The notes: generated by a model from the letters alone, not told the origin. 64,000 nucleotides of DNA from Endomicrobiia bacterium (GCA_039630545.1 JBCNUU010000001.1:160001-224000); one strand, 5' to 3'. Counted from the stretch's first letter, positions 1 to 14,525 are shown. A program made the numbers and translations.

Positions 1-449
1 TGAGATTAGTCAAAGAATGTAAAAATATTGTTGGGATAAAAGAAGCATCTGGTTCTATAGAACAAGTATCTCAAATTTATTCTCTTCTTCTTCAGGATGG
101 GTTGGAGAACAAAATTTCAATACTAAGTGGAGATGATAGTATGACTTATCCTATAATGTGTCTGGGTGGAAAAGGAGTGGTTTCTGTAGTAGCAAACATC
201 ATTCCTAAAAAAGTTTCTCAGTTTACTTCACTTTTACTTGAGAAAAAATTTGAAGAAGCACAGAAACTTCACTATGAACTTTATCCATTAATGAAAGCAA
301 TGTTTATTGAGACAAATCCCATTCCAGTAAAGGCTGCTATGGAGATGATGGGATTATGTAGTGGTGAGGTAAGATTGCCACTTACTTTTATTTCTTCACA
401 GAATAAAGAAAAACTAGAAAATATTCTTAAGAAATACAAATTGATTTAA
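1..449 (+). CDS. dapA: 4-hydroxy-tetrahydrodipicolinate synthase, C-terminal part (5' end outside window)
   Basis: Frame is open from position 3: RLVKECKNIVGIKEASGS...ILSGDD...GGKGVVSVVANI...ETNPIPVKAAM...VRLPL, the typical DHDPS motifs. Confidence 0.95.
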   Translation, partial: RLVKECKNIVGIKEASGSIEQVSQIYSLLLQDGLENKISILSGDDSMTYPIMCLGGKGVVSVVANIIPKKVSQFTSLLLEKKFEEAQKLHYELYPLMKAMFIETNPIPVKAAMEMMGLCSGEVRLPLTFISSQNKEKLENILKKYKLI

Positions 450-1229
450 ATGAGATTATTATACATTTATCATATCATATATATTTAAAATTCAACAATT
501 ACAAACTTTTAAGCAAACTATAAAAGAAGATGATTTTTAAAAACACCAAAAAGAAAGGAAATCTAAAAGTATTCCTTGCCAGTCTTTTTTAGAGCAAAAG
601 GACTTACCGGTATAATCAACTAAGCAAAAGAAATAGTTGCAGCAATAAAACATAATTATAATAATACTATGTTGCTTTATAGCTGTTATTCTACTGTTGA
701 GAGTTATGCATATGCCCATAAGTGGAAATTTAGCTAAAAAAATAGTTTTTTTTGACTCTTTTTAAGAGTGATTTTTTTTTAATAATATTAAAATGACAAA
801 AAAATATATCAAACCTCAAATTACTTCCAGGAAAGTTTTATTTCCAAATGATACATCTGTTGTTTAGTTAAATGAAGTTTACTATAAAAATGTAATCTGA
901 AAACTTTATCATCTTTTAAGCTGCTCGATCGTTGGATTTTATTTTATTATCATGTCATTATAAGGTTTATTTTTAAAATAGATAGATTTTTAAAACGTTC
1001 GCTGATGAAGTAAATAAAAAACTGATAACTTTCATAAAAATTTTTTTCTTTCGGTTTTATGTTTTAAAATAAATAAACAGGTTGTTTTTAACATTAGTCT
1101 TCATTTTTTAAAAATGTTTAGGTTTTTCTGCAACAAGAATAAAAACGGTAGAGTATACAATTTGGTGTAGGTTTTTCCACAGGTATAATATAAGGAGCAG
1201 ACCATACTGTGTATGTGCTCTATGTACTA

Positions 1230-1548
1230 AAAGACACTACAACTTCAGCCCTACCTTAACCTAAATTTTTCACAAAAAGATGTGTTAGTTTTTTGAAATG
1301 AAGTTAGTTTTGAGTTGTATGCTTTTTTTGATACACGGAGTTGTGTAAAAAAATAACATGAATTACAAATCTTAACTTCTGTAACATTTAAACATCTTCA
1401 TTATTCAACATCAACAGATGTGATAAACTATACTACCACATTATTATCCTAAAGAAGATACTGCTGGTGTGTAAAAACAAAGAATTATGCAGAAAAGTTT
1501 TCTTTGTAGTTTTCTGCGAGAAAATTCTTGATTGATACGCAACCAGCA
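1230..1548 (+). pseudogene. Decayed fragment of a secreted/surface protein with an FN3/Ig-like repeat
   Basis: 1297-1548 in one frame reads EVSFELYAFFDTRSCVKK*HELQILTSVTF...YTTTLLS*RRYCWCVKTKNYAEKFSL*FSARKFLIDTQP, resembling the D.GSG..Y.LQ.ST...L.EG.YYWRV...D.AGN.S.WS...F.IDT.P repeat pattern, with three in-frame stops. Confidence 0.55.
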
Positions 1549-1872
1549 ATGTTATGTTATTTGTTTGGATTCAGATACAGGTTTATTTAGAATGGTAGTT
1601 TTTCAAGATTTAGACTGAGAACTTACAACCGAGATAAAACTAACAAGTTTGGTTTATAAATTTTTACCTATCAACTTAAGCTTAATAAATCATCGTTAAA
1701 ATTAGATGAAGAAATAAAAAATTTTAAAAATAAGAAAGACTTAGAATGTTTTGGCATTAAAAAACTGCCTCGTTGTGCAGTATTTAGATACCATATTTTC
1801 ACAAAGTAGATATATGTATAAAACTTTTTATTTTTAATTTAAATAATATAAAAAACTTCAATCAAGTTTGTG

Positions 1873-1901
1873 TTGATTTTTTATTAAATTTATTGTATTT
1901 T
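1873..1901 (+). promoter_or_regulatory. Putative sigma70 promoter for tRNA-Pro/rpiB operon
   Basis: TTGATT (1873-1878), 17-bp spacer, TATTTT (1896-1901), 14 nt upstream of the tRNA. The AT-rich background lowers specificity. Confidence 0.4.
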
Positions 1902-1915
1902 TATAAATTCTGCCT

Positions 1916-1989
1916 CGGGGCGTAGCTCAGGTGGCTAGAGCACTCGTTTGGGGTGCGAGAGGTCAGCGGTTCAAGTCCGCTCGCCCCGA
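1916..1989 (+). tRNA. tRNA-Pro(GGG), CCA not encoded
   Basis: Cloverleaf: acceptor CGGGGCG/CGCCCCG, D-arm GCTC/GAGC, anticodon arm CTCGT-TTGGGGT-GCGAG, T-arm AGCGG-TTCAAGT-CCGCT, discriminator A. Confidence 0.97.
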
Positions 1990-2004
1990 GATTATCTCAA
2001 CAGT

Positions 2005-2463
2005 ATGATAATAGCAATTGCATCGGATCATGCTGGGTATAGGATTAAGAAAGAACTGGTTGAATTATTATCAAAAGAGTACAAGATAATAGATTTTGGA
2101 ACTTTTTCAGAAGAATCGTGTGATTATCCTGACTATGTAAAAAAAGTAGTTTTGGCTATAAGAAATAAAGAAGCAGATAGAGGTATACTTTTATGTAGCA
2201 GTGGAGAAGGAGTATGTATTGTGGCCAATAAATTTAAAGGCATAATGGCTGGTTTGTGTTATTCAGAAGAAGTAGCAGGTCTTTTATCTTCTCATAACTT
2301 TACAAATGTGATATGTTTTCCTACAAGAATAAAAAAAGAAATAACATCTGAGATGCTTTATAAGTGGGTAAAAATATGGTTGAATACTCCAAATTCAGAT
2401 GAAGAAAGGCATTTAAGAAGAATAAGAAAAATTAAAGAAATTGAGGAGGAAAATTTTAAATGA
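2005..2463 (+). CDS. rpiB: Ribose-5-phosphate isomerase B
   Basis: IAIASDHAG, DYPDY, GILLCSSGEG, HNFTNVICF, RHLRRIRKI motifs. Start moved to ATG 2005 because the ORF-track start lies inside the tRNA. Confidence 0.93.
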   Translation: MIIAIASDHAGYRIKKELVELLSKEYKIIDFGTFSEESCDYPDYVKKVVLAIRNKEADRGILLCSSGEGVCIVANKFKGIMAGLCYSEEVAGLLSSHNFTNVICFPTRIKKEITSEMLYKWVKIWLNTPNSDEERHLRRIRKIKEIEEENFK

Positions 2464-2864
2464 AATATTTTTCTGTGATTTTTTTGCTGTCTTTTACGAC
2501 TTGTCAAGTATTGTATTCTCAAGTTCATAAGACTATAGACGAAGCAATAGATTTAATAAATAAAAATAAATATGATGAAGCAATAGAAATTTTAGAAACA
2601 AATGGCAAAGAAAACGATATTCTTATAGCTATAGCTTACTTAGGAAAAAAAGATTTCAAAACAGCTAAAGCTTTTGCTTTGCAGTACTGGTTTAACAATG
2701 AAAATGATGTGTTAGCTAACTATGTTCTTGCTTTAATTTCAGAAGAACTTAAAGAGTATAATCTTGCTTTAATGTACTGGTCTGCAGTTTTAAAAAACGC
2801 AAAAGTACCTGTTCTAAAACAGCTTGCAAAAAAGCACATAGAAGTACTCAATAAATTAAAATGA
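2460..2864 (+). CDS. Secreted TPR-like helical protein
   Basis: N-terminal signal peptide, then TPR-like helices (YDEAIEIL, AIAYL, ALISEELKEYNLALMYW). ATGA overlap with rpiB. Confidence 0.7.
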   Translation: MKYFSVIFLLSFTTCQVLYSQVHKTIDEAIDLINKNKYDEAIEILETNGKENDILIAIAYLGKKDFKTAKAFALQYWFNNENDVLANYVLALISEELKEYNLALMYWSAVLKNAKVPVLKQLAKKHIEVLNKLK

Positions 2865-3427
2865 AAAAATCGAAATTCTATTTTATGTTTTCTATCCTTG
2901 CTATCCAGTGTTGTGTAACTCCAAAGGGGGTTTTCCATAAAGATTTTGACATAGACAAACTTACAACGATATTTGTAGAAGAATTCAAGCCCTACAATGG
3001 TTATCCTTCCAGCGGAGAAATGATAAGAGATTTAATAATTCAACATCTTTTAAGAAGAAAATTTGTAGTAAAAGATTTAAATACAGAAGATGTAAAGTAT
3101 ATATTGTCAGGTTCTGTAACCAAGTTTTATCCTGAAAAAAGATATTTAGTTTACATTGGAGAGGAAGGTAAAGATAACATAATAGTAGGAAGCACATTAA
3201 CAGAAATAAGTGGAAGTTATGTTTATAAAATTTCATCTGCGTTTGGCCTTAAAAATGCAGAGATAGTAGCAACTAACTCAGTAGTAGGAGTGTCAGCAAA
3301 ACTTATAGAAAAAGATACAGGTAAAATTTTATGGAGCAGTTCTTTTACATACGAAGCTTTAACTGTAGAAACCGCAGCAGATGTTGTAGTTAACTATTTA
3401 GTTACATCTTTAACTGGCAAAAAATAA
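2861..3427 (+). CDS. Putative lipoprotein (CsgG/DUF799-like alpha/beta fold)
   Basis: Signal peptide ending in Cys-Cys. V.EF..Y, ILSGSV and VGVSAKLIEKDTGKILWS patterns are typical of this lipoprotein superfamily. Confidence 0.6.
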   Translation: MKKSKFYFMFSILAIQCCVTPKGVFHKDFDIDKLTTIFVEEFKPYNGYPSSGEMIRDLIIQHLLRRKFVVKDLNTEDVKYILSGSVTKFYPEKRYLVYIGEEGKDNIIVGSTLTEISGSYVYKISSAFGLKNAEIVATNSVVGVSAKLIEKDTGKILWSSSFTYEALTVETAADVVVNYLVTSLTGKK

Positions 3428-3439
3428 CATAGATATTAA

Positions 3440-4072
3440 ATGGAGATTGCTAAATTTATAGAATACACTAATTTAAAGCCATACGCTACAGAAAAAGACA
3501 TAATAAAACTTTGTAAAGAAGCTATAAGATATGGATTTTTTGGAGTATGTGTTAATCCTGTATATGTGAAATTGTGTAAAGAAATCCTTAAAAACACCAA
3601 TGTTAGAATATGTAGTGTGGTGGGGTTTCCTTTGGGTTGTAATACTACAAAAGTGAAGGTGTTGGAATCCCAGCAGGTAATTTGTGATGGTGCTGATGAG
3701 ATAGATATGGTAATAAACCTTAGTGCTTTAAAATCAGGTAATTATGAAGAAGTTTACAAAGACATAAGCTTTGTAAGGAAAGCTACTGAAGGAAAAATAC
3801 TGAAAGTGATATTAGAAGTTTGTTACCTTACTAAAAAAGAAAAGGTTATAGCAGTTGAAATAGCAAAAAAGGCAAAAGCAGATTTTATAAAAACTTCAAC
3901 AGGATTTGGAACAAGCGGAGCAAATGTAGAAGATATTAAATTAATTAAATCCATAGTAAAAGAAAACATAGGAATAAAAGCAGCAGGGGGAATAAAAGAT
4001 AAAAATACAGCTTTAAAAATGATAAAAGCAGGAGCAGATCGTATAGGAACTTCATCTTTAATTAAGGACTGA
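3440..4072 (+). CDS. deoC: Deoxyribose-phosphate aldolase
   Basis: VVGFPLG, GADEIDMV, LKVILE, DFIKTSTGF, IKAAGGI, GADRIGTS motifs. Confidence 0.97.
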   Translation: MEIAKFIEYTNLKPYATEKDIIKLCKEAIRYGFFGVCVNPVYVKLCKEILKNTNVRICSVVGFPLGCNTTKVKVLESQQVICDGADEIDMVINLSALKSGNYEEVYKDISFVRKATEGKILKVILEVCYLTKKEKVIAVEIAKKAKADFIKTSTGFGTSGANVEDIKLIKSIVKENIGIKAAGGIKDKNTALKMIKAGADRIGTSSLIKD

Positions 4073-4079
4073 ATTATTT

Positions 4080-5513
4080 ATGATCCATAAATGGGAGATA
4101 AAATCATTTAAAGAAGCTAATAAGGTAGAATATAGAATAAGATTAAAAGCACAGGAAGAAGATTTAGTAGAACTTAAAAATTTTCTTAGAGAAAACAAAA
4201 TATAAATCTCAAAAGAATTTTCTTCTTTGAGCACAGAGTTTAATTATGTGTTATATGTAAGCAAAGTAGCTCAAGAAAAAATAAGTAAATTATCACTATT
4301 GCTTAAAAATCTATGTAATGATGGTAGTTTTATAGATATAGAGGAAGCTTCTGTTAAAGATGATGATGGTTTAAAATATCTCTATGAGATTTTAAGAGGT
4401 ATGTATGAATTGCCGATAGTAGGACAGCAGAAAGAGTTAAAAGAGGAATATTATGATATTCTAAAAGAGGCAAGTAAAATGATTTCTTCGGTTACAGATT
4501 TTAGTCAGCTCATAAAGATACTTTTTAAAATTTCGCATCAATTAAACTATGACAAAACAGTTATACTTCTTAGAGACGAAGATATGTTTAGTTTTGTTGA
4601 TGGATATGGAATAGACAAAAGCATTGCTGGTTTATATAAGTTAGATTTGAGCGTTGGGGAGATGATAAAAGATTTAGGAAGGATTGTCCCCAAAGAAAAA
4701 ATTCCTATAGAGATTTTAAATTCACAAGAATTATTTAAGATATTTCCAGTAGGTATAATAATTTCTTTAGTTTCTGAAAAAGAAACAGAAGGATTTATAT
4801 TGTTAAATGAAAAATCTCATATTATGAAAAATTTTAAAACCGATTATGATTTATTAGAAATTATTTCTTCTCAGATTTCTTCAGTTATTAAGAATTTTCG
4901 TCTTTCTAAAGAAGCAATTACTGATCCATTAACTGGTACATATAGGTATAACTATTTTGTAAAAAGATTAAATGAAGAAATTTACAGAAGTATACTATAC
5001 AAACATCCTTTAAGTTTATTGATGATAGATGTAGACAATTTTAAAACAATAAATGATACATATGGACACCAAATAGGAAATGTTGTGTTAAGAGAAATAG
5101 GTAAAGTTTTAAAAGAAAATGTTAGAATAAGTGATATAGTGTGTAGATATGGCGGTGATGAATTTGCTATAATTTTTCCAGAAACTAATATAGATGAAGC
5201 ATTGAGATCTGCAAAAATATTAAAAGACCATATAAATAACGTAGTTAAAATTACAAATGAATTAAAGCAAAAAATAGAAAGAATTGGAATAGAAATTATT
5301 CCTAAAATTATTATTTCTGATATTGAACCGAAGGTTACAGCTTCTATGGGTTTAGCTTTTATTACTGGGAAAGAAGAAAGAAAAATTACTTCAGAAGAGT
5401 TTATTAATTATGCTGATAAAGCTTTATATTTATCTAAAATAGAAGGTAAAAATAAAATAACCATATGGAATGAAGAAGAAATTATAAAATTTTTAAATGG
5501 AGAGATCTACTAA
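4080..5513 (+). CDS. Diguanylate cyclase (unrecognised N-domain + GAF-like + GGDEF); in-frame TAA at 4203-4205, intact ORF from 4227
   Basis: TDPLTG, LMIDVDNFKTINDTYGHQIGN, RISDIVCRYGGDEF (RxxD I-site present), ADKALY..K..GKN. ATG 4080 is in frame with 4227 and separated from it by one stop codon. Confidence 0.88.
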
Positions 5514-6603
5514 AGCTATGAAACCTGCAGATATAGACCAACTGTTACGGTTGATGGTTAAGAAAGGAATTTCTGATATTCATTTTAAAGCGAATTCTTC
5601 GCCACTAATTAGAATAAATGGTAAAATAGTATCTTCCAGATATGAAAAACTTTCTAAAGAAACAATAGAAAATATAGCATATGAACTGATGAATGAAGAA
5701 CAAAGAAAAACTTTTGAAAGAGAATACGAACTGGATTTTGCTTATTCAATAGAAGGATTCGCCAGATTTAGAATAAATGTTTATAAACAAAAAAATACAA
5801 TAGCTTTGACATTAAGAGTTATACCGTTAGAAATCAAGTCATTTAAAGAGTTAAATTTACCAGAAGAAGTGTTAATAAAACTTGCTCACGAACCACGTGG
5901 TTTGATACTTATAGCTGGTATAACAGGGTCTGGTAAGACAACCACTTTAAACTCAATGTTAAATTACATCAATGAAAATTTTGAATATAATATTATCACC
6001 ATAGAAGATCCTATAGAATATTATCACGTAGATAAAAAATCATCCATTTCACAAAGGGAAATAGGTTCCGATACTAAATCATTTAAAAATGCTCTTAAAT
6101 ATGTATTAAGACAAGATCCTGATGTTGTAGTAATAGGAGAGATGCGTGATTTTGAAGCAATATCTGCAGGAATAACAGCAGCAGAGACTGGGCATCTTGT
6201 ACTTTCTACAATTCATACTATTGATGCTGTTCAGACAATTGACAGGATAATAGATAGTTATCCTCCTCATCAACAAAAGCAAGCACGTATACAACTTTCA
6301 AATGTTTTGAAAGGAATTGTAGCACAAAGACTATGTAATTTAAAAGATGGTTCCGGAAGAATTCCAGCTGTTGAGGTGCTTATAGGAACTTCCTTCGTTA
6401 AAAAACTTATTTTAGAAAATAAAACGCAGGAAATATATAAAGCAATGGAAGCAGGAGAGTATTATATGATGAATACTTTTGACCAATCATTACTTAAACT
6501 ATACAACTCAGGTCTTATTACATTTGACGAAGCTCTGGATAAAGCTACAAATCCAGAAGATTTACAGTTAAAACTCCGTGGAATTTCTCAAACAAGAGGT
6601 TGA
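5497..6603 (+). CDS. pilT: Type IV pilus retraction ATPase, PilT/PilU family
   Basis: SDIHF, GITGSGKTTT (Walker A), TIEDPIEY (Asp box), LRQDPDVVVIGEMRD (Walker B), AETGHLVLSTIHT (His box). Confidence 0.92.
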   Translation: MERSTKAMKPADIDQLLRLMVKKGISDIHFKANSSPLIRINGKIVSSRYEKLSKETIENIAYELMNEEQRKTFEREYELDFAYSIEGFARFRINVYKQKNTIALTLRVIPLEIKSFKELNLPEEVLIKLAHEPRGLILIAGITGSGKTTTLNSMLNYINENFEYNIITIEDPIEYYHVDKKSSISQREIGSDTKSFKNALKYVLRQDPDVVVIGEMRDFEAISAGITAAETGHLVLSTIHTIDAVQTIDRIIDSYPPHQQKQARIQLSNVLKGIVAQRLCNLKDGSGRIPAVEVLIGTSFVKKLILENKTQEIYKAMEAGEYYMMNTFDQSLLKLYNSGLITFDEALDKATNPEDLQLKLRGISQTRG

Positions 6604-7337
6604 TTATGCTGCAGGATAAAGACAAAAAAGTAGACGAAATACTGGAAGAATTAAAAAATGTATTAGATTCTATTACTAAAAAAACTCAGACGAATACTCA
6701 ACCATTGCAAGAAGACAGTTTCAAAAAGATAGAAGAAATGAAAAATATATTGAAATCTAAAGAAAAAGAAGAAATTAAACTTGAAGAGAAAAAAGAAGCA
6801 ACACCTACCGAGAAGGTAGACAATGTTAATAAATTAAAAACTTCGTTAACTATCTTCTCTGAAACGACTAAAGAAGAGAAAACAGAACAAAAAATATCTT
6901 CCACAGCTCCAGAGAAACCATCTACTGAAGTGATGCCTCCTGAGGAAGCTGATAAAAAAGAGGGTATTGTAATAAAAACTATGGTGCTGGTTCCATTAGC
7001 TTTACAGGATGCCAAAGATGAGTTTTTTAATAATGTTAATTCTACTTTAAAACGGGTAAGTAAAAAGAATATAGAATTTAAAGAAAGTATCTGTGTAAGT
7101 TATAGTTCTTTAACCAAGGATATTTTTTTACAATATAGTTTAGTAGTTGAAAAAATCAGAAACAATAACATAAATGCCTTAATTTTTATAGTTAATGAAA
7201 ATACCTTAGAAGTAGAAGAGTTTATTAAAAAAATATCATCCTTTGTTATCTTAGCAAAAAGTATAACAATGAAAGAATTAAAAATGAGATCTACATATTT
7301 AGATCTTTCTATAGATTTACTTTTAACTATAAAATAA
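6600..7337 (+). CDS. Hypothetical protein: N-terminal helix, low-complexity E/K/T linker, and a C-terminal alpha/beta domain homologous to the C-terminus of the downstream DnaA-like protein
   Basis: 245-aa ORF overlapping the pilT stop and ending 1 nt before the next ATG. Alternative start ATG 6606. Confidence 0.8.
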
Positions 7338-7338
7338 C

Positions 7339-9135
7339 ATGATTTCTACATGGGATTTAAAATTTTTACCAACAGATAAATATCCTAATAGGTATAGATT
7401 AAGGGTTAAGTGTTCTGCAGAAGATTTGGAAGAGTTATGTAATTTTCTTAAAGAAGACCTAAACTTAGACATATCACCTCCTTTTAATGTTTTATCTTCA
7501 AATTATAATATAGGAATTTTTATATATGAATTACCACTAGAAACTAAAAATAAACTTGTAGATAAACTATTTTCTATTTGTAAAAGTGGTACAGTAGATG
7601 AAGGAATTTCTTCCAAAGAAGAAAATCAAGAAGAGAAATCTTCTAAAAAAGAATCTTTTCCTGACGAACTAAGCAGTGTCCTTGCCGATTTGGTTGAACA
7701 ACTAAGTTCAAAAGCAGTTGAAGAAGATAGCTCATCCAAGCAAAATATCTTCAATGGGATGCCTTTGAATCCTAAATATACTTTTGAAAATTTTGTAGTA
7801 GGTGCAAGCAATAGATTTACTCATGCTGCTGCTTTAGCAGTTGCTGAAAATCCAGGAAAAGCATACAATCCCTTATTTATATATGGTGGTGTTGGTTTAG
7901 GTAAAACACATCTTATGCAGGCAATAGGACATTATATAAAAAAGAAACGTCCATTACTAAAAGTAGTTTATATCCCATCTGATAAGTTCGTTACTCAGGT
8001 AATAGAAGCTATCCGTTCCGGTAATATTCAAATGTTAAGGGATGCTTATATGAGGGTAGATGTATTATTAGTGGATGATGTTCAGTTTATGGCTAGTTCA
8101 GAATCTACACAAGAAGAGTTTTTTCATATTTTCAACACTTTGCATCAGTATGGAAAACAAATTGTTCTTACAAGTGACAGACCTCCCAAACTTTTATCCA
8201 CACTTGAGGATAGATTACGTTCTAGGTTTGAATGGGGACTTATTGCAGATATAAAATCACCTTCTTTAGAAACAAGGGTAGCTATTCTTAAAAAGAAAGG
8301 AGAAGAAGAAAAGGTTAATGTTGATGATAATATTCTTTTATATATTGCATCAAAATTGAAATCAAATATAAGAGAACTTGAAGGTTTCTTAAAAAGAATA
8401 ACAGCATATGCTCATTTAAACAATGTGCCTATAAATATGGAGCTGGTTAAACAGTTAATGAGCGAACTTTTACCAGAAGAAGAACTCACAGAAGAAGAAA
8501 AAGCATTATCTGAAACAAGAAAAGAAAAAATAGAAGAAAAATCTAAAGAAGAACCCAAAGTTTCAGTAGCGCAAGAAGCTGCTTCTAAGAATAAACAAAA
8601 AGAACCTCAAACTATTTCTCTTGAAGAAATATACAGTTCAACACAACCTCCACTTCAACCTCAAACTCCACAGGTTTCTTCCGAAACAGTTGCTTCAAGA
8701 TCATCTGCACCAGATGAACAGAAATTGTATCAAGAGTATGAAGCAGAAACAAATGTAATTGAGGCTGCATTTTTCTATCCTGAAGGTAAAACTGAAGAAC
8801 TTAATATAGTAAAACAAAAATTTACTGAAGTTATTAAAAAACATAATTTAAAATATAAATTGGCTACAGCTTTTGATAGACCATACATGTTAGAAAATAT
8901 AAACTATAGATTATTTATAGAACTATGTAAGACAAACAAAGTAAATATATGTATAGTTATATCACCTCCGCCCAATAGTAATCTCTCTGCAGAAGAATTC
9001 TATAATAATCTTTTACCATTAGCAGAATCAGAAGGTATTAGATTGGAATACATTAACTGGAAGGAAATAACAAAAGAATACAGATACCTAAATCTCGCCT
9101 TGGATATAGCCCTATCAAAATTTAAGATGTTTTAG
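7339..9135 (+). CDS. dnaA: DnaA-family AAA+ ATPase paralog lacking DNA-binding domain IV, with atypical N- and C-terminal domains
   Basis: [66 protein letters not shown] and NIRELEG are present. No RQxAMYL or GGRDHTTV domain IV signature. Confidence 0.85.
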
Positions 9136-9198
9136 GCCTTTTTTTTCATTTCATAAACTATTGATTTATAATCATAAATTTCTTAAAAATTATGAATT

Positions 9199-10959
9199 AT
9201 GAAATTAACAAATTTTTATTTACCAACATTAAGGGAACCGCCAAGTGAGTGTGATATAATTTCTTCTAAGCTAATGTTTAGAGCAGGTATGATAAGAAAA
9301 CTTGCCAGTGGTATATATGAGTATTTGCCACTTGGTTTAAGGGTTCTTAAGAAGATAGAGCAAATAATACGTGAAGAGATGGATAGAATAGGTGGTCTTG
9401 AAGTGTGGCTTCCTCATCTTTTGCCTCGGGATATATGGGAGCAGACAGGTAGATGGCAACTATACGGTAAAGAACTTTTTAGATTAAAAGACAGAAAAAA
9501 CGCCGATTTTTGTTTATCTCCTACAGCTGAAGAAGTTATAACACATCTTATAAGAAATGAAATGCGTTCTTATAAACAATTACCAAAAATGTTTTATCAA
9601 TTTGGTACAAAATTTAGAGATGAAATAAGACCAAGATTTGGAGTAATAAGAGCCAGAGAATTCTATATGAAAGATGCTTATTCTTTTCATAAAGATGAAA
9701 AAGATGCGGAAGAGTTTTACCAGAAGGTTTTTGATGCCTATTGTAGAATTTTTAAAAGATGTGGATTAAATTTTGTTGCGGTAGAGGCATCTACAGGGGC
9801 TATTGGAGGCAAATTTTCTCATGAGTTCATGGTTGTCAAGGAAAAAGATCCTGATTTTGTGGGTGAAGAGACAATAGTGTTTTGTTCTAATTGTGGTTAT
9901 TCTGCAAATATAGAAAAAGCAAAGTGCATATATGAAGATACTACTGAAAAGTTTTTGAAAATGGAAGAATTATGCGAAGTGTTTACTCCGGGTATGAAGA
10001 CAGTGGAAGAAGTAGCCGGTTTTTTGAAGGAATCTAAAGATAAATTTATTAAAACTTTAGTGTATAAAGAAGAAACACAAAATTATGTGTATTTAGTTCT
10101 TATTAGAGGTGATTATGAAGTAAACGAAGCAAAACTTAAAGAAGTTTTGTCATTGTCAGATATTAAGTTGGTAGAACCACAGGAGGTGGAAGAAATCTTT
10201 GGTGTTCCTGTGGGTTTTTTAGGACCTGTTAATTTAAATATTGTCAATAAAAAGTATGTAGTTAAGACTGTAGCAGATGAGTCTGTGAAATATATAATGA
10301 ATGGTATTTCTGGAGCAAATAAAAAAGATTATCATTTAAAGAATATAAATTATCAAAAAGATTTTACTGTAGATATAGTTGCTGATATTAGAAATATTAC
10401 TAAAGAAGATTTATGTCCTGTATGTAGAAATAAGAGTACTTTAAATTTTTCAAAAGGGATAGAAGTTGGTCATACTTTCAAATTAGGTACAAAATACTCA
10501 AAGTCGATGGAAGCCACTTTTCTTGATGAAAATAATAATCAGAAGTACTTTGTCATGGGATGTTATGGGATTGGTGTTTCAAGAATTATAGCAGCAGCTA
10601 TAGAACAAAATCATGATGATAAAGGGATTATCTGGTATCCTGAGATTGCTCCATTTTTAGTATATATATTGCCTATTGATTATAGTGATCCCCAGATCAA
10701 AAATATTACTGATAAACTCTATAACTTATTGTTAGACAACAATATAGAAACAATCTTAGATGACAGAGATGAACGGCCAGGAGTAAAATTTAAAGATGCG
10801 GATCTTATAGGAATACCTCTAAGAATAACTATAAGTAAAAAACTACTTCCATCAAAAGTTGAATTATATTTTAGAAAAAACTCTGAGAAAGAAGTTGTGG
10901 AGTTGGATGGTATAATAGATAAAATTAAAAAAACACTTGCTTCATTAAAAAATTTTTAA
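9199..10959 (+). CDS. proS: Proline--tRNA ligase (bacterial type with editing domain)
   Basis: PTLRE, AGMIRKLASGIY, FRDEIRPRFG, GIEVGHTFKLGTKYS, MGCYGIGVSR, DDRDERPGVKF. Confidence 0.98.
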   Translation: MKLTNFYLPTLREPPSECDIISSKLMFRAGMIRKLASGIYEYLPLGLRVLKKIEQIIREEMDRIGGLEVWLPHLLPRDIWEQTGRWQLYGKELFRLKDRKNADFCLSPTAEEVITHLIRNEMRSYKQLPKMFYQFGTKFRDEIRPRFGVIRAREFYMKDAYSFHKDEKDAEEFYQKVFDAYCRIFKRCGLNFVAVEASTGAIGGKFSHEFMVVKEKDPDFVGEETIVFCSNCGYSANIEKAKCIYEDTTEKFLKMEELCEVFTPGMKTVEEVAGFLKESKDKFIKTLVYKEETQNYVYLVLIRGDYEVNEAKLKEVLSLSDIKLVEPQEVEEIFGVPVGFLGPVNLNIVNKKYVVKTVADESVKYIMNGISGANKKDYHLKNINYQKDFTVDIVADIRNITKEDLCPVCRNKSTLNFSKGIEVGHTFKLGTKYSKSMEATFLDENNNQKYFVMGCYGIGVSRIIAAAIEQNHDDKGIIWYPEIAPFLVYILPIDYSDPQIKNITDKLYNLLLDNNIETILDDRDERPGVKFKDADLIGIPLRITISKKLLPSKVELYFRKNSEKEVVELDGIIDKIKKTLASLKNF

Positions 10960-10980
10960 TATAAACACAATTTACTTACT

Positions 10981-11478
10981 ATGAGTAAAAATGAAATAAT
11001 AGAAAAAGTAAAAGAGGTAATTTCTCCAGTTTTAGAATCAGGTGGATATGAATTAGTAGATATAGAATATGATTTATCACAAGAAGGAAGAGTTTTAAGG
11101 ATATATATAGATAAAGATGGTGGTGTCAAAATCAAAGATTGTGAAACAGTAACTGCAATGGTTTTGACTGTATTAGATACTCATAAGATAATTGAAGAGG
11201 ATTATTTCATAGAAGTTTCATCCCCTGGAATATATCGTGAGTTAAAAAAAGAAAAAGATTTTTTAAGATATATAGGACATAGAATAAAAGTAAAATTATA
11301 CAATTCAATGGAATTGCCTCAGTTTGGTAAGCAGAAAGTTTTTTTTGGTAAATTAAAAGATTTTAAAAATAATACTTTGTGGATCGTCTTGGATAACAAC
11401 TTAGAAATATGTTTTGATATGAGTATAGTTGCGAAGGTAAATTTAGAACCAGACATTTCTATTTTATTTGATAAATAA
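10981..11478 (+). CDS. rimP: Ribosome maturation factor RimP
   Basis: ELVDIE, LRIYID, DCE, IEVSSPG motifs; lies upstream of nusA. Confidence 0.95.
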   Translation: MSKNEIIEKVKEVISPVLESGGYELVDIEYDLSQEGRVLRIYIDKDGGVKIKDCETVTAMVLTVLDTHKIIEEDYFIEVSSPGIYRELKKEKDFLRYIGHRIKVKLYNSMELPQFGKQKVFFGKLKDFKNNTLWIVLDNNLEICFDMSIVAKVNLEPDISILFDK

Positions 11479-11488
11479 CTTTAAATCT

Positions 11489-12562
11489 ATGACAGAAATA
11501 AAACTTGAAGATATATTACCAGCATTAGAACAAATAGAAAAGTTGCATAAAATACCTCGTGAGGAGGTTATAAAGTCTATAGAATCAGCTATAACTTCAG
11601 CTGCTAACAAATTTTTTGGTTCCGAATATAAAATCGTAACTAACATAGATTTTAACAGCGGTACTGGAGTGCAAACTTTTATCATTAAAAAAGTTGTTGA
11701 AAAAATTACTGATGAAAAACAAGAAATTTCTTTAGAAGAGGCAAAAAAATATAATTCTCAAGCTAAAATAGGAGATGAAGTAAAAATTTTAGTAAATAAT
11801 GCTTCTTTTAGCAGGTTAGCTGCTCAGTCTGCTAAGAAGATTATTTTACAAAAACTCCGTGAAAGTTACAAAAAGAATATCTTTGAGGAATATAAATCAA
11901 AAGTAGGTGAAATAGTATCAGCAAATGTGTATGCTATAAAAGGCAAAACCATTATATTAGAAGTGATGGGAAATATTGAAGGAATAATTCCACAGAGGGA
12001 ACAGGTGTTTAAAGAGAAATTTAGAATAGGACAAACAATAAAAGTATTAATAAAAGATGTTGAAAAAACAAAAAAAGGTATAAGAATAATAGCATCCAGA
12101 TTTGACAAAGATTTTATTAAAAAACTTTTTATGTCTGAAATCCCAGAGATAAAAGAAAATGTAATAGAAATAGTAGAAATTGTCCGTGCAGCTGGACATA
12201 GGACAAAAATAGTATTAAAATCAAATAATCCTAAAGTGGATCCTGTAGGATCTTGTGTTGGAGTAAAAGGTTCAAGAATAAAACCAATAATTGATGAATT
12301 ACAAGGAGAAAAAATAGATTTGATACCATATACCGATAATATTACAAAATTCATACTTTATTCCTTAGCTCCATGGAAAGTAGAAAAAGTAGAAGTAGAA
12401 GATGCTGACAAAAAAATAGCGAATGTTTATTTGTCTAAGGATTTTTACGAAACTGTTAGTGACAAAGCTAACATTAATCTTAATCTTGCTAAGGAATTAA
12501 CAGGTTGGGAGATAAAGATATATCCTTTAGAAACTAATGTAGATACTAAAAAAAATGAATAA
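11489..12562 (+). CDS. nusA: Transcription termination/antitermination factor NusA
   Basis: FSRLAAQSAK, S1 domain, EIPEI, RAAGHRTK, VDPVGSCVGVKGSRI, LAKELTGWEI. ATG 11489 preferred as start. Confidence 0.96.
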   Translation: MTEIKLEDILPALEQIEKLHKIPREEVIKSIESAITSAANKFFGSEYKIVTNIDFNSGTGVQTFIIKKVVEKITDEKQEISLEEAKKYNSQAKIGDEVKILVNNASFSRLAAQSAKKIILQKLRESYKKNIFEEYKSKVGEIVSANVYAIKGKTIILEVMGNIEGIIPQREQVFKEKFRIGQTIKVLIKDVEKTKKGIRIIASRFDKDFIKKLFMSEIPEIKENVIEIVEIVRAAGHRTKIVLKSNNPKVDPVGSCVGVKGSRIKPIIDELQGEKIDLIPYTDNITKFILYSLAPWKVEKVEVEDADKKIANVYLSKDFYETVSDKANINLNLAKELTGWEIKIYPLETNVDTKKNE

Positions 12563-14525
12563 AAAAAGTACCAAAAAAGACATAGATAAAATTAAAAAGA
12601 CAATTGTTGATAAGAAGAAAAAAGAAAAAAAAACTTTGCCTAAAAAAAACAATCTCAAGTCTTCTACAACGCTTTCTCGTAAACGAGAAGTATCACAGAA
12701 GTTGTTAACTATAAAGTTAACTAAGGAAGGCATTTCTCCCCAGGAAATTTCAGAGATTATAAAAGAACCTGTCAATAAAATCATTACAGAGTTGATAAGC
12801 TTAGGAGTAATAGTTTCTGCCACACAGAAAATTACTGATAAAGATACTCTTGAATTATTATTTATTCAGTTAGGAAAAAAAATAAAATTTGAAGAGGTTG
12901 TGGAAGCAAAAGAAGAGATTACTATTGAAGAAAAAGAAATTAAAGAAATTAAGGTAGAAGAACCAAAAATAGAAAAAAAACCAAAAGTAGAACAAGTTAA
13001 AAAAGAAATACCTCCTAATTTTGTTAAAAAAATTCCTGTAGTCACAGTAATGGGACATGTAGACCATGGCAAAACTACTTTATTGGATACAATTAGAAAA
13101 ACTAATGTTGTTTCACAGGAATACGGAGCTATTACTCAACATATTGGAGCTTATAAAGTTAAGTATAAAGAGAATTTTATAACTTTCATAGATACTCCGG
13201 GCCACGAAGCTTTTTATGCTATAAGAGCAAGAGGTGCTAAAGTTACTGATATTGTAGTTTTAATAGTAGCAGGTGATGAGGGGATTAAACCCCAAACTAT
13301 TGAATGTATAAATCATATAAAATCTGCTAATGTTCCCTTTATAGTTGCTGTTAACAAAATAGATTTACCACAGTGTAATGTAAACAATGTTAAAAAACAG
13401 TTTTCTGATTTAGGGATTATACCAGCAGATTGGGGGGGAGATGTTGAGTTTGTAGAGATTTCTGCAAGAAACAACATTAACATAGACAGGTTATTAGAAA
13501 TAATAATTGCTCAAACTGAACTAATGGAGTTATATTCACCAATTGATGTTCCTTGTGAAGCTGTGGTAATTGAAACTAAGTTTGATCAAAAAAAAGGATT
13601 TTTAGCCACTGTAATAGTCAACAAAGGCAAATTGAAAATAGGAGAAAGTTTTATATGTGGTTATTCATATGGGAAGGTAAGATCTATTTTTGATGAAAAT
13701 GGTCAAAAGTTAAATGAGTTAAATCCCGGAGAACCTGGAGAAATTTTTGGTTTTGAAGTTTTGGCTAATGCCGGAGATATTTTAAAAGTCGTAAAAGATG
13801 AAAAAGAAGCAAAAAGGATATATGAAGAACTTGAGGCTCAAAGGAAGATACAATTAAGTAAAACAAAAAGACATCTTACTATAGAAGATGTGATATCTGG
13901 TAAAAGAAATGTTTTAAGTTTAGTTATAAAAGCAGATACTCAGGGTTCTTTAGAAGCTATACTAAAGATGTTAAATAATTTATCAGAGGAACTTAAAAAT
14001 TCTGCGGAACTTCCGGAGCTAAAGATATGTCATTCTTCTGTAGGAGAAATAAAAGAATCCGATGTATTACTTGCTACAACAAGTGACGCTATAATAATAG
14101 GTTTTAATGTGAGACCCAATATTCAAGCTTTAAAAGACGCTAAACATGAAGGTATTGAGATAAGAACTTATAGGTTAATTTATGAACTTATAGATGACAT
14201 AAGAAAAACACTGCAGCGTTTAGAAATAAAAAAAGAAACAGAAGAGTTTTTAGGAAGAGCAAGAATTAAAAAAATTTTCGAGATTTCCAAAGTAGGAAAA
14301 ATAGCTGGATGCATAGTGGAGGAAGGCAAAATTGTAAGAAATTCAAAGGTAAGAATTTTGAGAGATAATGTTATTATAGGTGAGACAAAAATTATTTCTT
14401 TAAAACATTTCAAAGAAGATGTGAAAGAAATTCAGCAAGGATATGAATGTGGTATTGGACTTGAAAACTTTCAAAACATAAAAGAAAACGATGTGATAGA
14501 ATGTTATCAAATTGTAATTAAATAA
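12555..14525 (+). CDS. infB: Translation initiation factor IF-2
   Basis: VVTVMGHVDHGKTTLLD, GAITQHIGAY, DTPGHEAF, NKID, KADTQGS, ECGIGL. Confidence 0.98.
   Translation: MNKKSTKKDIDKIKKTIVDKKKKEKKTLPKKNNLKSSTTLSRKREVSQKLLTIKLTKEGISPQEISEIIKEPVNKIITELISLGVIVSATQKITDKDTLELLFIQLGKKIKFEEVVEAKEEITIEEKEIKEIKVEEPKIEKKPKVEQVKKEIPPNFVKKIPVVTVMGHVDHGKTTLLDTIRKTNVVSQEYGAITQHIGAYKVKYKENFITFIDTPGHEAFYAIRARGAKVTDIVVLIVAGDEGIKPQTIECINHIKSANVPFIVAVNKIDLPQCNVNNVKKQFSDLGIIPADWGGDVEFVEISARNNINIDRLLEIIIAQTELMELYSPIDVPCEAVVIETKFDQKKGFLATVIVNKGKLKIGESFICGYSYGKVRSIFDENGQKLNELNPGEPGEIFGFEVLANAGDILKVVKDEKEAKRIYEELEAQRKIQLSKTKRHLTIEDVISGKRNVLSLVIKADTQGSLEAILKMLNNLSEELKNSAELPELKICHSSVGEIKESDVLLATTSDAIIIGFNVRPNIQALKDAKHEGIEIRTYRLIYELIDDIRKTLQRLEIKKETEEFLGRARIKKIFEISKVGKIAGCIVEEGKIVRNSKVRILRDNVIIGETKIISLKHFKEDVKEIQQGYECGIGLENFQNIKENDVIECYQIVIK

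Follow-up and report, generated by a model that had tools for sequence, protein, structure and literature searches.

The window examined here is a 64,000-nucleotide stretch of the genome of an Endomicrobiia bacterium (GCA_039630545.1, JBCNUU010000001.1:160001-224000), a 1.6-Mb assembly that is 95% complete. Four plus-strand genes between its positions 4,080 and 9,135 encode a diguanylate cyclase, a PilT-family ATPase, a hypothetical protein that we term the adaptor, and a paralogue of the replication initiator DnaA that we term DnaA'. A sequence-only reading of this DNA had described the four genes as overlapping or abutting and as an undescribed system joined by shared domains. The four open reading frames (ORFs) were confirmed (Table 1), and the two shared domains, one N-terminal (X) and one C-terminal (Y), appear from the searches described below to occur almost only in these loci; the proposal of a domain-linked module was borne out. 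The locus is best explained as this lineage's version of a cytoplasmic module that occurs throughout the Elusimicrobiota and is built around a DnaA-derived AAA+ ATPase; its conserved core across the phylum consists of the PilT paralogue, one or two adaptors carrying X and/or Y domains, and DnaA'.

The last of the four genes had been predicted to encode a full DnaA domain III without domain IV, in the order X, AAA+ domain, linker, and Y, and our domain assignments agree with that layout. Residues 143-303 of DnaA' matched PF00308 (Bac_DnaA; E 3.3e-71), the protein scored 369 bits with TIGR00362 (cut-off 344; profile positions 99-363 of 437), and a gap-free alignment of 249 residues showed its domain III to be 47% identical to that of the canonical DnaA of the source genome. 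Neither domain I (DnaA_N, PF11638) nor domain IV (Bac_DnaA_C, PF08299) was found in DnaA' with Pfam, and PF08299 was present in 0 of the 120 best homologues. Conservation was very high across the family, which public records label "chromosomal replication initiator protein DnaA". In an 8-row alignment K178, D235/D236, R285, and R334 (E. coli numbering) were invariant in DnaA'; we take K178 and D235/D236 to act as the Walker A/B residues and R334 as sensor II, as in DnaA. PMC3287180 identifies R285 of E. coli DnaA as the arginine finger and assigns V211 to the H motif and R245 to the B motif, both of which the protein requires to bind single-stranded origin DNA. Of 42 DnaA' sequences, none has a basic residue at the R245 position, where 38 have Ser, 3 have Ile, and 1 has Ala; this position lies within an almost invariant SES(T)Q, V211 is replaced by Ile, and the canonical DnaA of the source genome has Lys at the R245 position. 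On the basis of these assignments, DnaA' is predicted to keep all the parts required for ATP binding and arginine-finger oligomerization and to have lost all three DNA-reading elements of DnaA, and it would be unable to bind DNA in the way that DnaA does.

A search for a separate canonical dnaA-dnaN locus recovered the first gene but not the pairing: dnaA is on another contig (C82; L002:970-2334, minus strand), between KsgA-like and family-3 glycosyltransferase-like genes, and dnaN is not adjacent to it. Its 454-residue product, with DnaA_N, Bac_DnaA, and Bac_DnaA_C domains, is the only Bac_DnaA_C match in the source genome. A canonical DnaA was found in all 46 phylum genomes searched, and a quick tree with one outgroup, which leaves the root open, separated 43 DnaA' from 31 canonical Elusimicrobiota domains III into two groups with Shimodaira-Hasegawa-like approximate likelihood ratio test values of 99 and 96. 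In this tree the canonical domain III of the source genome has a very long terminal branch of 0.99 changes per site, and that of the window paralogue a very short one of 0.023. A third, weak Bac_DnaA match (E 3.9e-11) was observed at C31:72-518 (L003, 3-575, plus strand), where a 190-residue frame is truncated by the start of the contig and may represent either a fragment or an Hda-like gene.

These data bear on the reading that DnaA' regulates replication initiation as an Hda-like or poisoning subunit, which would join or cap canonical DnaA oligomers through domain III and tie initiation to pilus, surface, or nutrient signals. Such a role would fit the true DnaA domain III, the retained R285, the canonical DnaA present in every genome searched, and the constant neighboring genes described below, which serve growth and nucleotide metabolism. 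DnaA' nevertheless scored only 106.7 bits with the Hda model TIGR03420, below its cut-off of 194.8, and lacked a clamp-binding motif: QL[SDNT]LF was found in 0 of 43 sequences and QLxLxL in 1 of 43, that match being inside the AAA+ core (we take these two patterns to be the clamp-binding consensus of the Hda N terminus). The clean separation of the two groups in the tree also counts against this role, as does the observation that dnaA or dnaN was never adjacent to the module in the loci read, and the invariant SES(T)Q at the B motif together with the two added domains points to a new set of partners. Nothing was found that points to co-polymerization of DnaA' with canonical DnaA, as the sequence-only reading had envisaged, although the arginine finger is kept. 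We conclude that a role in replication is not supported, and we give this explanation little credence.

The similarity of the C termini of DnaA' and the adaptor, barely visible by BLASTP (E 0.017 only), was established by comparing profiles of 19 DnaA' and 13 adaptor C termini with hhalign, which gave a probability of 97.3% and E 1.8e-11 over 112 columns. Searched against the complete set of six-frame ORFs of the source genome, an adaptor profile also retrieved DnaA' (E 1.5e-7); Y is confined there to these two proteins. An AlphaFold2 (AF2) model of DnaA', computed from a 43-row alignment, consists of separate confident folds joined by disordered linkers; residues 470-597, corresponding to Y, were predicted to form four strand-helix units with a predicted local distance difference test score (pLDDT) of ~93. 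The adaptor matched no Pfam family and has the proposed helix-linker-Y layout, with a conserved N-terminal helix and a disordered acidic linker ahead of Y. When a Y profile was run against 1.84 billion representative proteins, only 338 matches were obtained at E ≤ 0.001, and Y was always C-terminal. Among the best 150 of these proteins, classified with our own profiles, 96 were Y-only (many being fragments or helix-linker-Y adaptors), 21 were X-AAA-Y, 17 X-Y, 15 AAA-Y, and 1 X-X-AAA-Y. Non-AAA members scanned with Pfam had no family in 70 of 71 cases and the arrangement receiver-receiver-Y (REC-REC-Y) in the other. In this last protein, P0096 (543 residues), two receiver domains precede Y, an arrangement suggesting that a response regulator can use Y for output or docking. 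The adaptor of deeper lineages corresponds to DnaA' minus the ATPase (X-linker-Y) and is sometimes present in two copies; the adaptor of the window has lost X.

For fold searches with Y we used the model of a relative's X-Y protein (299 residues, pLDDT 80), in which the matches cover residues 172-297. Foldseek returned 4 matches at E ≤ 0.001 and was led by MID domains of Argonaute/PIWI proteins, with the MID domain of hAGO2 (3lud_B) at E 3.3e-4 and a template modeling score of 0.62 on the target. A VIA scan of 48,161 chains, independent of Foldseek, was led by the MID domain of MIWI (4p1z_A; Z 13.5, root-mean-square deviation 2.4 Å, 122 of 127 residues); Drosophila Piwi (Z 13.2) and Ago2 MID (Z 12.3) also scored highly, and receiver domains were near Z 10.5. 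The Atlas lead, Piwi/ArgoMid, was weak (0.76-0.79). Among PDB sequences, profile comparison of Y picked out only a designed protein (E 0.0012) and, as the best Piwi chain, one at E 0.2; it revealed no sequence relation to MID, and no Pfam family, including Piwi, was matched. Y is described here as a domain predicted to resemble MID in fold only, within a common fold class.

The MID-like fold raises an alternative in which DnaA' acts directly on incoming DNA during uptake or transformation. In that scheme Y would hold a 5' end or a nucleotide, the AAA+ oligomer would handle the strand together with ComM and DprA, and the released deoxynucleosides would feed deoC, the nucleoside phosphorylase (PNP), and the pentose genes. 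That MID domains ranked best for Y in two independent fold searches, with the weak Atlas lead in addition, is consistent with this scheme, but receiver and flavodoxin-like folds are only 2-3 Z units below MID and Y shows no MID sequence similarity. The basic B-motif residue for single-stranded DNA binding (R245, as assigned in PMC3287180) is moreover lost in all 42 DnaA'. The gene-context evidence on this alternative is given with the distribution of the loci.

The N termini of the cyclase and DnaA' had been reported to match, and this similarity is real, but it emerges only when an in-frame TAA in the cyclase gene is read through: the two X domains were then 38% identical over 69 residues (E 5e-13), whereas DnaA' X compared with the cyclase ORF from 4227 gave a best E of 5.2, which is not significant. 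An X profile matched the 47-residue 5' cyclase frame at positions 1-40 (E 1.5e-4) and intact cyclase orthologues at E 5e-11 to 4e-09; in the six-frame ORFs of the source genome it found X only in DnaA' and in both cyclase pieces. AF2 predicted X of DnaA' at a pLDDT of ~95, in the order strand-strand-helix-strand-helix-strand. No Pfam family was matched by X even at E ≤ 10, the best PDB sequence in a profile search was at E 0.13, and Atlas gave no usable match. A word-based query with the single X region returned 6 close relatives only, and a profile query returned 42 proteins, consisting of 6 DnaA' and 36 proteins without a Pfam family, with no new fusion. The possibility that X is a diverged DnaA domain I was ruled out by hhalign comparison with 22 canonical N termini (probability 0.3%). 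Lacking a Pfam, NCBIfam, or PDB entry, X and Y would define two new protein domains. The adaptors also carry a short conserved N-terminal helix with the pattern D/E-x-I-L-x-E-L-x-x-V-L (window positions 6600-6700); a conserved helix of similar pattern lies in the DnaA' linker after X (residues 111-128, window positions 7660-7720, pLDDT ~59), and X-Y proteins have a helix at the matching place. This helix may be a third shared element.

The GGDEF domain of the cyclase matched PF00990 at E 3.7e-37, and its GGDEF and RxxD motifs are readable in the translation. The frame opened by the ATG at 4080 meets the TAA in the middle of X, the ORF finder resumes at the TTG at 4227, and the source genome has no intact cyclase frame including the N-terminal domain. 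A single TAA was also flagged by the search tool within the 483-residue frame. The remainder is 82% identical to an intact 477-residue orthologue (L024:2368-3798), and in three genomes of the same genus (G001, G002, and G003) the gene is intact, encoding 474-481 residues with E, K, or L at the position of the stop codon. Contigs assembled from three public runs, all belonging to a single metagenome study of a hot spring, matched window positions 3800-4700 exactly; these runs may represent the source sample, and contigs hide minor variants. We read the TAA as a recent nonsense mutation in this population, judging from the intact orthologues and the matching contigs. The cyclase, if made at all, would be without its X domain, and because the codon removes this tag, only PilT, the adaptor, and DnaA' would still be linked in the source genome. 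The X-GAF-GGDEF layout that had been assigned to the protein was confirmed for X and GGDEF; the middle region, a putative GAF domain, matched no GAF model at E ≤ 0.01 and only GAF_3, weakly, at E 0.05 (14.5 bits; cut-off 27), and it showed weak similarity (E 2e-4 over 83 residues) to a histidine kinase of another locus (L053).

X-GGDEF genes were found only within the family of the window, in 3 of 17 relatives' loci and, in G009, on another contig. Given this confinement and the stop codon here, the diguanylate cyclase is not a core part of the module. A GGDEF gene without X was observed ~3 kb 5' of an X-less DnaA' in a distant lineage (L052:1164-2201). These findings bear on the hub that the sequence-only reading had proposed, in which X-X contacts would tie the cyclase to DnaA' and Y-Y contacts the adaptor, joining cyclic di-GMP (c-di-GMP) synthesis to pilus retraction. 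The sharing of X by cyclase and DnaA' and of Y by adaptor and DnaA', the intact catalytic motifs, and the PilZ gene of a single distant locus (L064) would all suit such a hub. The restricted occurrence of X-GGDEF, the interruption of X in the source genome, the deoC gene that stands between X-GGDEF and pilT in G001, and the histidine kinase found instead in most lineages make it very improbable in our estimate; the kinase and comM-dprA genes described below are the more widespread partners.

The PilT assignment was confirmed by a match to TIGR01420 above the cut-off and over the full length (465.2 versus 319.1 bits; profile positions 2-343 of 343). The source genome has three PilB-like genes, three PilT-like genes (two besides that of the window), and one PilC gene. 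Orthologues of the locus PilT, at 56% identity or above, were detected in 17 of 19 DnaA'-containing genomes and in 1 of 22 genomes that lack DnaA'; genomes of family f4 have either no PilT or a single PilT that is 42-45% identical to the window protein. PilT is directly 5' of the adaptor or DnaA' in 16 of the 17 relatives' loci that have upstream sequence, and by our count it is upstream in 31 of the 52 species-representative loci and absent from 10, the other 11 being truncated at a contig end. The locus PilT is a paralogue of its own, dedicated to the module. Two damaged copies were seen: in one locus the pilT gene next to DnaA' (L056:3384-4459) is split into three frames and is probably frameshifted, and the locus-PilT orthologue of G019 has one in-frame TGA.

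The features of the locus are collected in Table 1. Downstream of DnaA', the same tight plus-strand run continues with proS, rimP, nusA, and infB. Over positions 1-14000 the G+C content is 25-33% throughout, and the GC skew is positive all along, without a switch. Within 1500-9400, promoter-like sites (35, versus 42.3 in shuffled sequence) were not enriched and terminator-like sites (3 versus 2.4) did not exceed the shuffles. The pair of TPR-like and GNA1162-like genes seen upstream in the window recurs 5' of pilT in many loci of the phylum (for example, L031, L059, L064, L072, and L090).

Table 1. Genes and domains of the module and its upstream neighbors in the window. Positions are counted from the first nucleotide of the window.
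Feature	Positions	Strand	Description	Basis
Cyclase gene, full span	4080-5513	+	Interrupted by in-frame TAA 4203-4205	
Cyclase 5' piece	4080-4205	+	First half of domain X, 41 codons; ends at TAA 4203-4205	
Cyclase remainder	4227-5513	+	Second half of X, middle region, GGDEF; ORF start TTG 4227	
PilT-family ATPase	5497-6603	+	Distinct paralogue traveling with DnaA'	TIGR01420
Adaptor	6600-7337	+	245 codons: N-terminal helix, disordered acidic linker, Y (~6960-7334)	Alignments, hhalign
DnaA paralogue (DnaA')	7339-9135	+	598 residues: X, linker, AAA+ domain III, Pro/Gln-rich linker, Y	
Domain X of DnaA'	7339-7602	+	Residues 1-88	AF2, alignment
DnaA domain III of DnaA'	7756-8538	+	Residues 140-400, AAA+ core and lid	
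Domain Y of DnaA'	8752-9132	+	Residues 472-598, four strand-helix units	AF2
rpiB	1948-2463	+	Kept neighbor upstream	Pfam, synteny
TPR-like gene	2460-2864	+	Kept neighbor upstream	
GNA1162-like lipoprotein gene	2861-3427	+	Kept neighbor upstream	
deoC	3440-4072	+	Kept neighbor upstream	

Y was present (E ≤ 1e-5) in 231 of 401 Elusimicrobiota genomes, including 9 of the 9 other genomes of the window's family and 0 of 89 genomes of family f4. Of the 52 species-representative loci, 49 are labeled Elusimicrobiota, class Endomicrobiia, and the remaining 3 carry another phylum name or none. Because related genomes are not independent observations, these presence and synteny counts are a description of the pattern rather than a test of it. 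The order GGDEF-pilT-Y-dnaA' was conserved in part, with pilT, adaptor, and DnaA' kept together across the phylum but GGDEF joining them only in the family of the window. The flanking backbone is constant, with tpiA, rpiB, and deoC upstream and transketolase (tkt) and PNP genes downstream. A histidine kinase gene is directly 3' of DnaA' in 30 of 51 loci, 29 of them starting from -22 to +126 nucleotides from the DnaA' stop and one more being recognized by Pfam. GAF domains were found in 8 of 10 kinases scanned with Pfam, seven of which have three and are 870-1004 residues long; no kinase frame matched the X or Y profile. The kinase is often followed by a gene for a single receiver and then by a transketolase or nucleoside phosphorylase gene. 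No such DnaA'-adjacent kinase was found in the 9 loci of the window's family.

Family f20 differs in arrangement. In its DnaA' proteins, which are longer (526-1624 residues), the AAA+ domain and Y are preceded by an N-terminal extension without assignment; in two loci (L147:5901-10772, minus strand, and L146:3289-6579, plus strand) this extension was seen to span 500 to more than 1200 residues without a Pfam or X-profile match. The gene order in five of the six f20 genera is tpiA, deoC, DnaA', one or two unassigned genes, comM, and dprA, and in the sixth genus OmpA-family and PilM-like genes come after DnaA'. A secretin gene is located 5' in L062 and L065. The comM-dprA genes after DnaA' in f20, the PilT, secretin, and PilM-like neighbors, and the constant context of deoC, PNP, phosphopentomutase-like, rpiB, and tkt genes are the contextual evidence for a direct action of DnaA' on incoming DNA. 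The source genome also contains dprA, comM, and comEC, but control searches for these genes gave matches in 10-14 of 14 genomes, and since they are common to most bacteria their presence here says little. Taking the fold and context evidence together with the lost B-motif residue, we consider direct DNA handling unlikely.

The variation among these loci could also mean that there is no joint function, with the gene order simply inherited and DnaA' working alone in an unrelated process. The gene downstream of DnaA' does vary (proS here, a kinase in most lineages, and comM-dprA in f20), and 10 loci are without PilT. The overlapping or abutting start and stop codons, the domains shared between neighboring genes, the joint presence or absence of the PilT paralogue and DnaA', and the adjacency kept across families of the phylum are not what this explanation would lead one to expect, and we rate its chance as the slimmest of all.

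The reading that we tentatively favor, as possible but with somewhat less than an even chance, is that DnaA' is an ATP-dependent docking or assembly switch on a pilus or competence motor. DnaA' in its ATP form would oligomerize like DnaA, and the oligomer would present many X and Y docking domains to a motor of the PilT type that sits where a type IV or competence pilus is anchored. X/Y proteins without an ATPase would use the same docking sites and would either bridge or compete. Other proteins could be plugged in by X or Y tags, such as the X-tagged cyclase in the family of the window and REC-REC-Y elsewhere, and the kinase and receiver would supply input or output. Such a switch would in effect control either the retraction of pili or the uptake of DNA. 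This reading draws on the retained ATPase residues, the synteny and co-occurrence of the PilT paralogue with DnaA', the shared X and Y tags, the adjacent kinase, and the other pilus or competence neighbors (comM-dprA, PilM-like, secretin, and PilZ genes). In complex prediction the PilT-adaptor pair gave an interaction prediction score from aligned errors (ipSAE) of 0.54 (runs 0.52-0.57), with 0.00 for the best of 3 controls, a partner pLDDT of at least 63, and a contact agreement of at least 38%. For comparison, 116 of 157 solved pairs attained this ipSAE mark, as did 2 of 215 mismatches; only 18 of the solved pairs, but both mismatches, were among the scores of 0.60 or less. The prediction lends weak support to a PilT-adaptor contact.

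Several points weigh against this docking switch. An ipSAE of 0.54 is in the weak band, where a passing score is likelier to be false than true unless the pairing was plausible beforehand, and the prediction came with no reported interface. X and Y are assigned putative docking roles from their architecture. DnaA' occurs without an adjoining PilT in 10 loci, and in f20 PilT is outside the locus altogether. When the L053 kinase was used as the query, no kinase orthologue was found in the source genome, the best match being 27% identical and in the sensor part. The most constant neighbors throughout the phylum, the sugar-phosphate and nucleoside genes tpiA, rpiB, deoC, transketolase, and PNP, are not explained by the model; indeed, none of the readings considered here explains them. 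Finally, the non-independence of related genomes noted above applies to the synteny on which the switch is modeled. A bolder version, which we regard as rather unlikely, holds that a replication-initiator ATPase has left replication entirely and been rebuilt, with a MID-like sensor of nucleotides or nucleic-acid ends replacing the DnaA-box reader. It would form the core of a phylum-specific signaling machine that couples competence proteins to a dedicated PilT motor and to a GAF histidine kinase and receiver, and DNA uptake would be sensed and regulated through ATP-dependent assembly of a DnaA-type filament.

Compared with known systems, DnaA' resembles DnaA in its full domain III with lid, Walker A/B motifs, R285, and R334, but it differs in lacking domains I and IV, in the Ser at the B-motif position, and in the addition of X and Y. 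Hda/HdaA and DnaC/IstB are likewise DnaA-clan AAA+ proteins without the double-stranded DNA-binding domain IV; DnaA', in contrast, is ~600 residues long with two extra folded domains, and its domain III is DnaA-like rather than Hda- or DnaC-like. The predicted four-unit strand-helix fold of Y is Rossmann-like, as is that of Argonaute/PIWI MID domains, but Y proteins have no PAZ or PIWI domain and no detectable sequence relation to them. The KaiC clock protein offers a works-like analogy only: KaiC is a slow ATPase hub for which small KaiB and the kinase SasA, which share one domain, compete at one site. The ATPase-less X/Y proteins beside X-AAA-Y and the adjacent histidine kinase may be comparable, although there is no sequence or fold relation and the module kinase carries neither X nor Y. 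The regulators known for PilT are, as we understand it, c-di-GMP receptors of the PilZ/FimX type and receivers of the PilG/PilH type, and we know of no described PilT regulator that is a DnaA-type AAA+ protein or a carrier of X or Y. DrdR is reported in PMC13507683 to be a tandem-receiver regulator of PilT. The module shares with PilT/PilU systems a bona fide PilT-family ATPase and, in various lineages, GGDEF, PilZ, single-receiver, or REC-REC-Y proteins. A title-level search of the literature on DnaA-like proteins without domain IV, on DnaA with PilT, and on Elusimicrobia found no description of the arrangement.

The known roles of DnaA domain III are to melt origins and, in Hda, to switch this activity off. 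If the docking switch is correct, a deeply conserved copy unable to read DNA would represent a new use of the DnaA ATPase, in connection with competence genes, a two-component system, and the motor of a pilus. The "DnaA" label that the DnaA' family carries can cause errors when origins are predicted or dnaA copies are counted in Elusimicrobiota. The module would also provide an entry point to the control of pili and DNA uptake in a phylum that has hardly been studied experimentally.

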